This document shows positions 6,918 to 41,330 of a DNA stretch of 64,000 nt, in pieces; positions within the stretch are counted from its first letter, which is position 1, and every line of letters begins with the position of its first letter. Both the position numbers and the translations under genes were made by a program. Under the pieces are notes generated by a model, which worked only from the letters and a program-made list of their open reading frames with translations, was not told the DNA's origin and made no database searches. Origin of the DNA: Candidatus Woesearchaeota archaeon (GTDB taxonomy: Archaea; Nanobdellota; Nanobdellia; Woesearchaeales; JAZDKJ01); assembly GCA_043803105.1 (NCBI GenBank), contig JAZDKJ010000006.1:364222-428221 (forward strand), given 5' to 3'.

Positions 6918-7044
6918 TGGGCCGGACGAGATTTTCTTTGTTTTTTTTTCCAAGTTGCATTCGAACTCGCGACCACCTGATTGCTTTGCAGCTTAAAAGT
7001 CAGGTGCTCTATTGCCCTTATACTCCAGGCTGAGCTACCGGCCC
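6918..7044 (-). tRNA. tRNA-Lys: tRNA-Lys(UUU), 127 nt, three introns (D-loop, anticodon loop, T-loop)
   Basis: Hand parse: GGGCCGG TA GCTC AGCCTGG[AGTATAAGGGCAA]TA GAGC A CCTGA CTTTTA[AGCTGCAAAGCA]A TCAGG TGGTC GCGAG TTCGAAT[GCAACTTGGAAAAAAAAACAAAGAAAAT] CTCGT CCGGCCC A. Exact splice points are ambiguous by 1-2 nt. Confidence 0.8.
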
Positions 7045-7059
7045 ATCGTGATTGAAAAA

Positions 7060-7225
7060 CGCCCTGGTCGGGACTTCCAACAACAGACATGCCGTATGAC
7101 ATTTTCAGCTGATTTGAACCCGAGTCGAAGCCTTTTTGCGGTAGCAAACAGTAATTCAACCCTCCCTCTGGTTGAAAAGCCACCTCGACAGGGCTTCATG
7201 ATAGGCCAGACTACACTACCAGGGC
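7060..7225 (-). tRNA. tRNA-Asp: tRNA-Asp(GUC), 166 nt, two introns (anticodon loop about 52 nt, T-loop 39 nt)
   Basis: Hand parse: GCCCTGG TA GTGT AGTCTGGCCTA TCAT G AAGCC CTGTCGA[GGTGGC...CCGCAAAAA region] GGCTT CGAC TCGGG TTCAAAT[CAGCTGAAAATGTCATACGGCATGTCTGTTGTTGGAAGT] CCCGA CCAGGGC G. Confidence 0.8.
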
Positions 7226-7432
7226 TTTGACCTAGTTAAGCCTAATTTAAGCTTTCTAGCCACCAAGCAGTCCACATAGGTCTTCTTAAGCGCATAGAAA
7301 GATTGAATTGGCATGGCCCACCTATCTTCACACCTGTTTATAAAGCTTGTGGTTTTTTCCTGACTTATTCAGGTCTGCTTGAACTTTTGCTTGATTACTT
7401 TCAAATGTTCTGCTCGAATTAAAGCGAGAATA

Positions 7433-7559
7433 TCCCCGAGGCCGGAGTCGAACCAGCAACCTTTCGGTAACGGCTGAGTGTTTTTCACATTCTGCACTGA
7501 GTGCAATATCAAAACACTATCCCTACAGCCGAACGCTCTAGCCATTGAGCTACTCGGGG
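7433..7559 (-). tRNA. tRNA-Tyr: tRNA-Tyr(GUA), 127 nt, one canonical 54-nt anticodon-loop intron
   Basis: Hand parse: CCCCGAG TA GCTC AATGGCTA GAGC G TTCGG CTGTAG[54-nt intron]A CCGAA AGGTT GCTGG TTCGACT CCGGC CTCGGGG A. The C1-G72 pair is the archaeal/eukaryal Tyr identity pair. Confidence 0.85.
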
Positions 7560-7636
7560 AAGCTTTTTTCCTTAGGAAAAAACCTTGGAAAATATGTTTT
7601 TGCCAAGGCAAAAACGCTGCCTTTAAGGCAGCTAAA

Positions 7637-7679
7637 GTTGCGAGCTGACTTTTCAGCTCAGCTATTGAGCTACTCAGGG
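7637..7679 (-). ncRNA. Truncated degenerate copy of the tRNA-Tyr 5' end (nt 1-24), ending within and continued by a conserved 23-nt hairpin
   Basis: CCCTGAGTAGCTCAATAGCTGAGC compared with the genuine CCCCGAGTAGCTCAATGGCTAGAGC (the D-loop GG is reduced to AG). The hairpin GAGCTGAAAAGTCAGCTCGCAAC (7659-7637) starts at the copy's last GAGC. The same hairpin occurs at 29650-29672 and 41291-41313. Confidence 0.6.
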
Positions 7680-7707
7680 ATAATTCAATGAATAACAAAC
7701 AAGGGTC

Positions 7708-7717
7708 TTTTTATAAA
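7708..7717 (-). promoter_or_regulatory. TATA box (TTTATAAAAA) 28 nt upstream of the truncated tRNA-Tyr copy
   Basis: Read directly on the minus strand. No comparable TATA lies between the truncated copy and the full tRNA-Tyr. Confidence 0.5.
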
Positions 7718-7777
7718 CATTTCTTATCTCTGTGTGTGCTTCTTTCTTCGGAACGACTCAGAATTTTGCTATTGCTA

Positions 7778-8137
7778 TTAGTGTACAATTCTCATTTTTC
7801 CAGCCATGACTAAATTGTGCTCAATCTCTAGCTTGTTGAATCTTTTTTCCATCGCTAGGATCTTATCGACTTTTTGCTCTGTTTGCTCTACACCGTTCTT
7901 TATCTTACCTAATTTGTATGCTCCCCCGAGAATCGAAATGCCTCCTCCAAGATATGGTATCATCTCTACCCACACTGGAGAGCGCACAATTCCAAAAACC
8001 TTAAGCAGCGCCCACAGGAGTATTGCCAGTGCTCCTATGACAATCAGGGAATCCCAGAGGTCAAAACTTGCGTTGAAGAGTTTTTTTAGCTTTTGAATTG
8101 TCCTCATGCTGGCAGCAATAATAAAAAGGTCGTTCAT
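7778..8137 (-). CDS. small membrane protein, hypothetical
   Basis: 119-aa ORF with two hydrophobic helices and a C-terminal coiled-coil-like tail. Last gene of the 13050-7778 minus-strand cluster. Confidence 0.5.
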   Translation of the reverse strand: MNDLFIIAASMRTIQKLKKLFNASFDLWDSLIVIGALAILLWALLKVFGIVRSPVWVEMIPYLGGGISILGGAYKLGKIKNGVEQTEQKVDKILAMEKRFNKLEIEHNLVMAGKMRIVH

Positions 8138-24050: not shown

Positions 24051-24106
24051 TTGACTGTTGGCTTCATACGTACATATACGTATAAATATTTAAGCCTTAT
24101 GATTTA

Positions 24107-29580: not shown

Positions 29581-29637
29581 TCACTGGTCGGCTCTGTACA
29601 ATAATCAAGGAGCAGTACACTTGACCTTACAATCATT

Positions 29638-29672
29638 GGGGCTGCGGGGGAGCTGCGAAGTCAGCTCGCACC
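29638..29672 (+). ncRNA. Truncated degenerate copy of the tRNA-Pro 5' end plus conserved 23-nt hairpin
   Basis: GGGGCTGCGGGGG compared with the genuine GGGGCTGTGGGGT (U8 replaced by C). The hairpin is GAGCTGCGAAGTCAGCTCGCACC (29650-29672). The leader ACAATCATT matches ACAATCAAT before the real tRNA. Confidence 0.6.
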
Positions 29673-29710
29673 TTCGTGGGACATAAAGTCCCCCTGACAT
29701 CACAATCAAT

Positions 29711-29827
29711 GGGGCTGTGGGGTAGCTTGGTCTAGCCTATCTGGTTTGGGGCAATGCAAAAAACCAGATGACCCCGGTTCGAAAGTTTTATAAAAGGCTG
29801 ATTAACTCGAAAATCCGGGCAGCCCCA
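29711..29827 (+). tRNA. tRNA-Pro: tRNA-Pro(UGG), 117 nt, two introns (12-nt anticodon loop, 30-nt T-loop)
   Basis: Hand parse: GGGGCTG TG GGGT AGCTTGGTCTA GCCT A TCTGG TTTGGG[12 nt] CCAGA TGAC CCCGG TTCGAAA[GTTTTATAAAAGGCTGATTAACTCGAAAAT] CCGGG CAGCCCC A. The mature length is 75 nt. Confidence 0.85.
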
Positions 29828-29905
29828 CTCATGTTCGTGGTTGGTCTTCCCAATGGGAAGACGCACCCTTTAGGGTGCCGATGCAGTCAACAGGCATTTC
29901 TGTTG

Positions 29906-29921
29906 ATCCGGGCCGCCCCCA
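29906..29921 (+). other. Degenerate duplicate of the tRNA-Pro 3' end
   Basis: ATCCGGGCCGCCCCCA compared with the genuine ATCCGGGCAGCCCCA (29813-29827). Preceded by three hairpins (29828-29905). Confidence 0.45.
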
Positions 29922-29977
29922 CTCAGTTTTGTTGGCTAAAAACATGGGAAAACGCTGCACAAAGGGCAATTCGCAAA

Positions 29978-38942: not shown

Positions 38943-39088
38943 ATTCTCTGCATATTTTGGGCTGTATTTAAAGGTTTTCAGGATACAAGGAAAGTTAGGA
39001 TTTCATGTCCTTTTGTAATTTCTTCAGAAGGCAATCCACACCTTGTAATATATTATCTTCTTGAGGTTTTCAATATCGATAAATTTTG

Positions 39089-39242
39089 CGCCCGGTCAGG
39101 GATTTTCACTTGATGAGATTTGAACTGTCAGAAATTCACTGAATTTCTGAGCATGCTCGGAAACATAGTTTCCGACACCTGGAGACCTGTGATGGTCAAT
39201 TGCTTTTCAGGCAACCGCGATACCCGATTACGCTAGCCCGGC
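39089..39242 (-). tRNA. tRNA-Phe: tRNA-Phe(GAA)-like, multi-intron, imperfect acceptor stem
   Basis: GCCGGGC TA GCGT AATCGGGTA TCGC G GTTGC CTGAAAA GCAAT TGAC...[hairpin-rich insert]...G TTCAAAT[CTCATCAAGTGAAAAT] CCCTG ACCGGGC G. The acceptor pairs only 5/7 and the T-stem 5' strand needs a further intron. Confidence 0.4.
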
Positions 39243-39360
39243 CTCGCACATTTCTAAATTGACCTGAACCTTAATATGTTCAATTGAGAATTTTCCGTAA
39301 GTTCTGCGACAAAACCGAGCAAAATCTTATATACCAGAATGCTTACAAACTTTATGACCT

Positions 39361-39389
39361 GCGATTTAATTACCTGATTACGCGAGCCC
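39361..39389 (-). other. Partial duplicate of the tRNA-Phe-like acceptor 3' end plus D arm
   Basis: GGGCTCGCGTAATCAGGTA[ATTAAA]TCGC compared with GGGCTAGCGTAATCGGGTATCGC (17 of the first 19 nt identical). A TATATAAAAA box abuts it at 39390-39399. Confidence 0.5.
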
Positions 39390-39452: not shown

Positions 39453-39654
39453 TGGGGCTGCTGGGATTTCCATGCTTCTAGGACGGTCTTTTGGCATCAG
39501 CCAAAAGCCTTTTCCCAGGTTTTTGCATATTGCAAAAAGCTGTTTGGACCCAGATTAGGAGGTTTTCCGCTGAAAACCTTAGGTCAAATGCCCCGAACCT
39601 CCAGTGATAGTTTCTCGAAGAGTTTCTCTCTTCTCCAAGTTACACTACAGCCCC
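39453..39654 (-). tRNA. tRNA-Pro: tRNA-Pro(CGG), 202 nt, three introns (D-loop 25 nt, anticodon loop 28 nt, T-loop about 76 nt)
   Basis: GGGGCTG TA GTGT AACTTGG[AGAAGAGAGAAACTCTTCGAGAAAC]TA TCAC T GGAGG TTCGGG[28 nt] CCTCC TAAT CTGGG TCCAAAC[AGCTTTTTGC...GCATGGAAAT] CCCAG CAGCCCC A. Confidence 0.7.
39635..39654 (-). repeat. 20-nt perfect direct repeat, copy 1 (first 20 nt of tRNA-Pro(CGG))
   Basis: GGGGCTGTAGTGTAACTTGG, identical to 41164-41183. The flanking bases differ on both sides. Confidence 0.9.
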
Positions 39655-41074: not shown

Positions 41075-41183
41075 TTTCGAATTCCGGTCGGACGCATTCT
41101 GGTTTCATCCTCAAGCGTAAGTGATAGTTGCTTCAGGCAACCGAGCGAACTGGTTGGCGCTGGCCAAGTTACACTACAGCCCC
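41075..41183 (-). pseudogene. Truncated tRNA: Pro-like body, anticodon GAG, no 3' acceptor strand nearby
   Basis: GGGGCTG TA GTGT AACTTGG[37-nt insert ending AAGCAAC]TA TCAC T TACGC TTGAGG[12 nt] GCGTC CGAC CGGAA TTCGAAA... No CAGCCCC follows before the tyrS stop. Confidence 0.5.
41164..41183 (-). repeat. 20-nt perfect direct repeat, copy 2
   Basis: GGGGCTGTAGTGTAACTTGG, identical to 39635-39654. Confidence 0.9.
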
Positions 41184-41290: not shown

Positions 41291-41330
41291 GGTGCCAGCT
41301 GACTTCTCAGCTGAGTAGCACTACAGCCCC
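41291..41330 (-). ncRNA. Truncated tRNA 5' copy (GGGGCTGTAGTG...) plus conserved 23-nt hairpin
   Basis: GGGGCTGTAGTGCTACTCAGCTGAGAAGTCAGCTGGCACC. The hairpin CAGCTGAGAAGTCAGCTGGCACC (41313-41291) carries a compensatory C1/G18 change relative to the other two copies. Confidence 0.6.

Follow-up and report, generated by a model that had tools for sequence, protein, structure and literature searches.

The tRNA-Tyr locus

The window analysed here is a stretch of 64,000 nucleotides from the genome of a Candidatus Woesearchaeota archaeon (assembly GCA_043803105.1, contig JAZDKJ010000006.1, positions 364,222 to 428,221 of the forward strand), and its first letter is position 1 in all coordinates below. 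Within it, an intact tRNA-Tyr gene is separated from a TATA-like box by a partial copy of its own 5' end and a series of four hairpins (7560–7717). The first hairpin recurs at other archaeal loci, beside or inside tRNA genes and at some other targets, as one end of a small insert, hereafter element E, which we regard as probably mobile. The locus (7433–7717) is composed of the following features, in which X(A) and X(B) denote the upstream and downstream copies of the repeated target:

7708–7717, minus strand: TATA-like box TTTATAAAAA, within TGTTTATAAAAAGA, 28 nt 5' of CCCTGAGTAGCTCAATAGCT
7660–7679, minus strand: X(A), CCCTGAGTAGCTCAATAGCT, a direct repeat of tRNA-Tyr nt 1–20 that has decayed, adjoining hairpin 1
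7637–7659, minus strand: hairpin 1, GAGCTGAAAAGTCAGCTC (GAGCTG-AAAAGT-CAGCTC), followed by GCAAC; the conserved left end of element E
7616–7632, minus strand: hairpin 2, GCTGCC-TTAAA-GGCAGC (GCTGCCTTAAAGGCAGC), GC-rich, covarying with the units of the syntenic locus L081
7596–7615, minus strand: hairpin 3, GTTTTTGCC..GGCAAAAAC, the first part of the block 7564–7615
within 7564–7615, minus strand: linker ATATTTTCCAAGG between hairpins 3 and 4
7564–7582, minus strand: hairpin 4, TTTTTTCC..GGAAAAAA, then GCTT
7433–7559, minus strand: tRNA-Tyr(GTA), intact, with a canonical intron of 54 nt; X(B) is made up of its first 20 nt (Rfam RF00005, 54.6 bits; ARAGORN with introns allowed)

The initial annotation of this stretch, made from the letters alone, had described the TATA-like box upstream of the tRNA-Tyr copy, the D-loop damage in that copy, the hairpin directly after it and the intact gene downstream, and all of these are present. 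The copy covers nt 1–20 and is identical to 7540–7559 at 18 of 20 bases, the two changes being C4 to T and G18 to A. The three hairpins that follow had been described as having A/T stems; three do exist, but the first of them, hairpin 2, is GC-rich. Searches with Rfam 15 at gathering and permissive thresholds, over the locus and the whole window, returned no family except tRNA-Tyr, and the best non-tRNA matches within 7380–7780 had E-values of 0.59 or worse.

The TATA-like box at 7708–7717 is probably the ancestral promoter of tRNA-Tyr, and TGTTTATAAAAAGA is also present at L081 (6937–6950). The initial annotation had held that no TATA box lies between the fragment and the gene, and that the tRNA is made from a leader of about 125 nt. 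The first statement is not secure, as the block 7564–7615 contains, together with T5/T6 runs, a stretch resembling a TFB recognition element (BRE) and a TATA box, CAAAAACATATTTTCC, which by sequence reading lies about 30–36 nt 5' of the gene. Runs of five or six T are the usual termination signals of archaeal RNA polymerase. The leader transcript is putative, and the T5/T6 runs in the interval weaken the case for it. Element E at this locus is probably a passenger, either removed with the 5' leader or bypassed through the promoter-like stretch that it carries.

Structure and distribution of element E

Element E begins with a hairpin that has a 6-bp stem and an NNAWGY hexaloop, continues with GCAMC and at least one further hairpin, has a length of about 55–130 nt and encodes no protein; the inserts overall range from about 55 nt to about 200 nt. 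After GCACC come TTC or TTG and then hairpin 2, which varies in sequence among copies and keeps its pairing. The degenerate pattern SAGCTGNNAAGTCAGCTSGCANC matches the window exactly three times, at 7637–7659 (minus strand), 29650–29672 (plus strand) and 41291–41313 (minus strand), with no match expected by chance. These had been taken for one and the same 23-mer at three tRNA loci. Related copies indeed stand at the two further positions, but the three 23-mers differ mutually at 3–4 positions, and allowing the exact sequence up to 3 mismatches recovers only two. The second copy does precede a complete gene, tRNA-Pro(UGG), but the third precedes a tRNA-like sequence without an acceptor 3' strand. 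Its compensatory change from G1/C18 to C1/G18 is real. The features at these two loci are:

29630–29649, plus strand: X(A) of locus 2, CAATCATTGGGGCTGCGGGG, a copy both of 8 nt of upstream flank and of tRNA-Pro nt 1–12, with U8 changed to C
29650–29694, plus strand: element E of locus 2, with hairpin 1 GAGCTGCGAAGTCAGCTC, GCACC and hairpin 2 GTGGGACATAAAGTCCCCC
29711–29827, plus strand: tRNA-Pro(UGG) with two introns, one canonical and one in the T-loop, read by hand and missed by Rfam and ARAGORN
29832–29925, minus strand: a second insert, antisense and 3' of tRNA-Pro(UGG), with further hairpins
41291–41330, minus strand: locus 3, with X(A) GGGGCTGTAGTGCTACT carrying A14 changed to T (41314–41330), hairpin 1 CAGCTGAGAAGTCAGCTG (41296–41313) and GCACC (41291–41295)
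41075–41183, minus strand: tRNA-like sequence that ends in the T-loop; anticodon loop TTGAGGA, insert in the D-loop

X(B) of locus 2 is 29703–29722, and in the second insert the hairpin-1 variant CAACAGAAATGCCTGTTG (29888–29905, minus strand) stands between two copies of the tRNA-Pro 3' end. The tRNA-like sequence at 41075–41183 has its first 20 nt and D-arm in common with tRNA-Pro(CGG). No acceptor 3' strand for it was found nearby, the sole downstream CAGCCCCA being part of tRNA-Pro(CGG) (39453–39467), and it may be a pseudogene that has been truncated, or else the 5' portion of a split tRNA. A perfect 6-bp hairpin elsewhere in the window, ATACGT-ATATGT-ACGTAT (24066–24083, minus strand), matches a generic stem-loop pattern and is probably a chance match, because no GCAMC follows it and no repeat lies beside it.

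The motif proposed from these copies occurs at about 70 archaeal loci with covarying stems. Labels of the form L003 to L083 denote such loci, or loci of homologues. A scan of GTDB representative genomes, one genome per species, with the pattern SAGCTGNNAAGTCAGCTSGCANC gave 40 loci, of which 32 are labelled Woesearchaeota or Nanoarchaeota, 3 Methanosarcinales, 1 Omnitrophota and 4 are bacterial singletons. The singletons are judged to be chance matches, since their surroundings are ordinary sequence and show neither an element nor a target repeat. A metagenome scan added 40 more loci, about 9 of which are chance matches in coding sequence, mostly GC-rich, while 2.9 million viral contigs in IMG/VR contained no match to the hairpin motif. 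Almost all of the roughly 70 archaeal loci belong to Woesearchaeota/Nanoarchaeota, and E is specific to these DPANN archaea. The four loci labelled Methanosarcinales (L003, L014, L034) and Omnitrophota (L039, CP070655.1, a record described as a complete chromosome) carry a typical E in DPANN-like tRNA contexts, which suggests mis-binned contigs or transfer. Positions 1 and 18 of the hairpin-1 stem are concordant (G..C or C..G) in all 52 unique archaeal copies, and mixed combinations occur in chance matches only.

The tRNA-Tyr locus has a syntenic counterpart in L081, on a contig where a neighbouring protein is 46% identical to its counterpart in the window and where the gene order is the same (two hypothetical genes, a tRNA-Tyr/Asp/Lys cluster, rpoH and rpoB). 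Two further homologues of the neighbouring protein, L082 and L083, show no synteny for the tRNA cluster. The L081 tRNA-Tyr is preceded by three partial copies of its 5' end, which break off after nt 16, 20 and 22 and are each followed by a different hairpin 1 (CAACAG-AAATGC-CTGTTG, GAGCTG-AGAAGT-CAGCTC and GAGCGT-AAATGT-ACGCTC) and by its own hairpins 2–4. The first of these hairpins, at L081 position 7006, is identical to CAACAGAAATGCCTGTTG 3' of tRNA-Pro in the window, and the same module therefore occurs beside different targets in different genomes. The counterparts of the hairpin-2 stem in L081 units are GCCACC/GGTGGC and GCCCTTC/GAAGGGC. RNAalifold, applied to the window unit and two L081 units, recovers all four hairpins with 6 pairs that are changed on both sides and still paired; the hairpin-1 stem thus covaries fully. 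The NNAWGY hexaloop and the subsequent GCAMC or ATCAC remain similar across units.

Copy number can be high. One metagenome-assembled genome (MAG), JACQXV01, holds about 20 copies of E, many of them at contig ends, and the open reading frames (ORFs) beside the multi-copy instances in this MAG are ordinary or spurious only. A repeat of about 140 nt that resembles a miniature inverted-repeat transposable element (MITE), with terminal inverted repeats TATTTGTTTAGC/GCTAAACAAATA, is found at L006 (3465–3612) and at many JACQXV01 loci (L017, L027, L029, L035). In many copies of it the internal hairpin GTAAGTTAAGCCGCTTAC is swapped for the hairpin-1 module plus about 70 nt, and many contig ends are places where this composite has broken the assembly.

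Genomic settings and insertion rules

Element E is found in four settings. (a) As a sense insert 5' of a tRNA gene, it has a partial tRNA 5' copy adjoining hairpin 1 and the complete tRNA 79–228 nt later; the three window loci, L016, L019, L022, L064 and L081 are of this kind. (b) As an antisense insert 3' of a tRNA gene, it has a partial copy of the tRNA 3' end, in reverse complement, next to hairpin 1, and in 11 distinct loci the complete tRNA follows on the opposite strand at a distance of 63–105 nt. (c) It also occurs as a sense-strand, non-canonical intron in T-loops or D-loops of tRNA genes, without duplication. (d) Non-tRNA targets include the 3' coding end of SRP54 (L003, a tandem X-E-X-E-X arrangement) and TATA-like regions upstream of genes (L005), as well as L009, L014, L025, L034 and L068. 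Overall, a complete downstream tRNA stands on the opposite strand in those 11 loci and on the same strand in 5. Not every instance of the motif follows a tRNA 5' fragment, as it is also found antisense downstream of tRNAs, inside them and at targets that are not tRNAs.

Across the duplicating settings, the truncated copy of the target is always next to hairpin 1, at a distance of 0–5 nt, and the complete copy always follows the variable tail of E. The direct repeats measure from 13 to more than 57 nt, and their outer edge usually lies a few nucleotides past the gene end (about 40 nt past it in L038). In tRNA genes the target is broken in the region of the D-arm or T-arm, which in this lineage is also a site of introns. 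For copies with no nearby repeat, the 40 nt that precede hairpin 1 were searched for across the whole locus and did not recur at a distance, and no kilobase-scale repeat was present. Serial arrays occur at L016, L053, L064 and L003. In L016 (minus strand) and L053 there are three copies of the same tRNA end, separated by two different inserts, and one of the inserts in these arrays has no hairpin 1 and keeps a hairpin-2-like GGGTTTCGC..GCTCAAGCCC stem.

The intron form

Copies of E inside tRNA genes are located in T-loops at L060, L062, L071, L073/75, L077 and L078, and in D-loops at L037, L046 and L048. Deletion of 80–96 nt from the start of hairpin 1 restores a tRNA detectable by ARAGORN at L060, L062, L071, L077 and L078, and does so over a narrow length range only. 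The same deletion scans are ambiguous for the D-loop cases L046 and L048, and for L037 and L075 they yielded no tRNA, whatever the length deleted. When the T-loop introns are folded, the T-stem is closed and the 5' end of the intron pairs with an inverted copy of itself in the intron tail. In four of six cases, by eye, UGAA or UCGAA in the tail pairs with UUCR of the T-loop between two bulges of about 3 nt, giving a near-canonical bulge-helix-bulge (BHB). In the window, all three copies stand 5' of the tRNA body and not inside the gene, where BHB-type introns lie, and the window inserts are without the inverted tail and the GAAAG 3' motif of the intron-form copies.

Origin of the inserts

Among the readings offered by the initial annotation was the scar of a small mobile or intron-like element, and this is the one we favour, the hairpin module being an intron in D-loops and T-loops elsewhere. 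We think it rather likely that the hairpin forms the conserved left end of an element that is mobile but not autonomous, is related to introns and, on insertion at the DNA level, duplicates its target. At 7560–7717, the tRNA-Tyr gene would have received one E at the position of its D-loop. The upstream sequence of 20 nt, at first taken for a tRNA mimic, would be the displaced and decaying copy of the target, and the downstream copy would belong to the working gene. An extragenic insert of this kind leaves the gene intact, because the target sequence left of the insertion point is repeated right of E. The three upstream fragments in the window are dead, decaying relics and not alternative exons, since universally conserved tRNA positions are mutated in them (G18 to A in Tyr, U8 to C in Pro and A14 to T in the third).

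The anatomy of E, its covariation, distribution, orientation rules and arrays and the decay of the fragments are observed directly. Movement at the DNA level is suggested by the occurrence of E in both orientations and at non-tRNA targets, and may proceed through an intermediate, single-stranded or circular, that depends on the hairpins; integration would be by recombination with a copy of the target. Campbell-type integration of a small intermediate carrying the target copy beside hairpin 1 fits better than staggered-cut transposition, because the repeats are variable in length, the hairpin-1 junction is fixed and arrays occur. No parts of tRNA genes are more conserved or more palindromic than the T-loop and D-loop, which could explain the preference for these targets, and the same palindromic conservation could explain how a duplicated TTCGAA comes to form the central helix of a splice site. 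A more tentative extension, possible but in our estimate doubtful, is that E is the DNA-level mobile form of archaeal non-canonical tRNA introns, protein-less and hairpin-dependent, which integrates together with a copy of its target. On a sense landing in a palindromic loop (TTCGAA), the duplicated loop would supply the central helix of the BHB and the insert would survive as an intron; after other landings, E would survive only where the duplication rebuilds the gene, leaving behind tRNA fragments and arrays.

Several observations weigh against the favoured explanation. Mobility is read from the distribution of the element rather than observed. No enzyme is associated with E: the 20 ORFs scanned around the three window loci contain no transposase, integrase or recombinase domain, and are housekeeping genes (eRF1, aIF5B, a class I tRNA synthetase, Lhr helicase) or have no Pfam match. 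The block of hairpin 3, linker and hairpin 4 was found upstream of tRNA-Tyr copies only, and such a locus-bound module fits a local tandem duplication or a locus-specific function equally well as repeated insertion. Four hairpins kept by compensatory changes between genomes at 46% identity of a neighbouring protein could reflect a cellular RNA function. The BHB geometry was judged by eye only, with a central helix of 4 bp in four of the six cases and 3 bp in two. Finally, we know of no transposition mechanism that yields target duplications of 13 to more than 57 nt with an outer edge just past a gene end.

The pattern of repeats also invites the explanation that the inserts are scars of larger integrative elements, plasmids or viruses of the SSV or pNOB8 type (SSV, Sulfolobus spindle-shaped virus) with a tRNA-end-like attP and a tyrosine recombinase, which were later mostly deleted and left a hairpin arm between attL and attR. 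Archaeal integrative elements are classically recognised by direct repeats of a tRNA 5' or 3' end, of which one copy is partial and the other complete (PMC3293823, PMC9897764), and a repeat edge that usually lies just past the gene end and serial arrays at one site would both suit such an origin, as would the proposal of Sugahara et al. (PMC3293823) that tRNA introns were gained through an intron-bearing attP. We nevertheless consider this origin unlikely, for none of the roughly 70 archaeal loci has a kilobase-scale element or an integrase between the repeats, no integrase lies near the window loci, and the 2.9 million viral contigs are free of the motif. A fixed attP would, moreover, forbid the presence of the hairpin module at many targets, including SRP54 and promoter-like regions.

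A function as a cis-acting or small RNA, with the fragment and hairpins transcribed from the strong upstream promoter and serving as a structured leader, a processing signal, a decoy that keeps integrating elements off the tRNA gene, or a small RNA that ends at a T-run, would account for other features, namely the strong TATA box conserved 5' of the first fragment in the window and at L081, the compensatory changes that keep all four hairpins, the T5/T6 runs after hairpin 2, which would terminate an RNA of about 70 nt, and the fact that several window tRNAs adjoin a partial copy. A structured leader used in processing, as the initial annotation had envisaged, fails as a general explanation, because E lies antisense downstream of tRNAs in at least 11 distinct loci and is also found as a tRNA intron, at the ends of protein genes and in promoter-like regions. 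The fragments, too, decay at invariant tRNA positions instead of staying conserved, and covariation is no proof of a role as RNA when hairpins fold on either DNA strand, so that we rate a functional RNA as quite improbable. Much the least probable is an alternative 5' exon or a piece of a split tRNA, joined in cis or trans, with the hairpin region and the downstream 5' copy removed as an intron, even though the acceptor strand of the tRNA-Tyr fragment remains able to pair with CTCGGGG if one U-G pair is allowed, the fragment stops within the D-loop, at positions where real introns are found in this lineage, and the third locus precedes a tRNA-like sequence without a 3' end. Against it, all three fragments are altered (G18, U8 and A14) and their downstream copies are intact, the window inserts do not have the inverted tail and GAAAG that bring the splice sites together in the intron form, and the same architecture exists antisense to tRNAs.

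Several known types of element were considered and rejected. A guide-RNA reading, in which the fragment would be the guide and the hairpins its scaffold (the omega-RNA of TnpB/IscB, or a CRISPR-like system), is contradicted by the absence of a common motif beside the second repeat copy (about 17 loci), of a nuclease gene nearby and of any Rfam match. A classical MITE does not agree with extragenic copies that have no right-hand inverted repeat, only the intron form having an inverted tail, or with duplications of 13 to more than 57 nt. Integron attC sites and casposons are set aside for the lack of terminal inverted repeats in extragenic copies, the variable duplication length and the absence of a core-site motif.

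Other tRNA genes of the window

Besides tRNA-Tyr, the window contains at least five further tRNA genes with two to three introns each, in the D-loop, anticodon loop and T-loop, all of them missed by Rfam and ARAGORN, which together detect one of at least six. In addition to tRNA-Pro(UGG), listed above, they include the following multi-intron genes:

about 7060–7225, minus strand: tRNA-Asp(GUC)
about 6918–7044, minus strand: tRNA-Lys(UUU)
39453–39654, minus strand: tRNA-Pro(CGG), with a T-loop intron of about 77 nt
about 39087–39245, minus strand: one more tRNA gene

Several T-loop introns in the window have GGAA(A)G or GAAAA directly 5' of the 3' exon. A further partial 5' copy, GGGCTCGCGTAATCAGGTA (39371–39389, minus strand), lies about 130 nt 5' of a tRNA (GGGCTAGCGTAATCGGGTA, 39221–39239, minus strand), and the insert between the two has no hairpin-1 motif; partial duplications next to tRNA genes are therefore not confined here to one type of insert. 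The tRNA genes of these DPANN genomes are badly under-called, and the partial copies risk being mis-annotated as tRNA genes.

Relation to known systems and significance

The closest described phenomenon is the spread of introns in Thermoproteales, and the second closest is the tRNA-fragment repeats of integrating elements. In Thermoproteales, near-identical non-canonical BHB introns have spread among tRNA genes (Fujishima et al. 2010, summarised in PMC4090602), and a later review still calls the mechanism of this 'intron transposition' unknown (PMC4090602). Like E, these introns are short, near-identical sequences that recur in various tRNA genes at various positions, the D-loop and T-loop among them, they encode no protein, and a spread at the DNA level has been proposed for them. 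Like the Thermoproteales hosts, moreover, the host lineage of E has a splicing endonuclease of broad specificity (the epsilon2 type of ultrasmall archaea, PMC3239211). E differs in being found in DPANN archaea and in that its window copies are not introns; it is also extragenic, in either orientation, at non-tRNA targets, with partial target duplications and in arrays, for which we found no report in Thermoproteales.

The repeats left by integration of the SSV/pNOB8 type resemble those around E, since one truncated copy and one whole copy of a tRNA end, tens of nucleotides long, flank the insert, and intron gain is possible there as well (PMC3293823, PMC9897764). The inserts with E, however, measure about 55 to about 200 nt as against 2–25 kb, have no integrase, use many targets and always have one conserved hairpin at the truncated copy. 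Non-autonomous elements with hairpin ends offer another comparison. The IS200/IS605-derived palindrome-associated transposable elements (PATEs) and the bacterial repetitive extragenic palindromes (REP) and their paired forms (REPINs) are small, gene-less and multi-copy, have conserved hairpins and are moved in single-stranded form, and E is likewise small, gene-less, dominated by hairpins and multi-copy. PATEs and REPINs insert beside a short fixed motif without target duplication, unlike E, and no Y1 transposase was linked to E in this analysis.

Literature searches, incomplete in coverage, found no description of E, which is not proof of its novelty. E is best placed as a variant of a known phenomenon, namely intron-related mobile DNA at archaeal tRNA genes, in which the combination of an intron form with extragenic, target-duplicating inserts, the tiny size and the terminal hairpin set E apart from the two closest systems. 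If E is indeed the mobile form of non-canonical tRNA introns, it would provide a concrete mechanism of tRNA intron gain and a route to split or fragmented tRNA genes. As E is seen in both states, as a D-loop or T-loop intron and as an extragenic insert that duplicates its target, it may show how archaeal tRNA introns spread. The two states open the chemistry of insertion to direct study, and give a handle on the gain of tRNA introns, a question open since 'intron transposition' came to be inferred for Thermoproteales.

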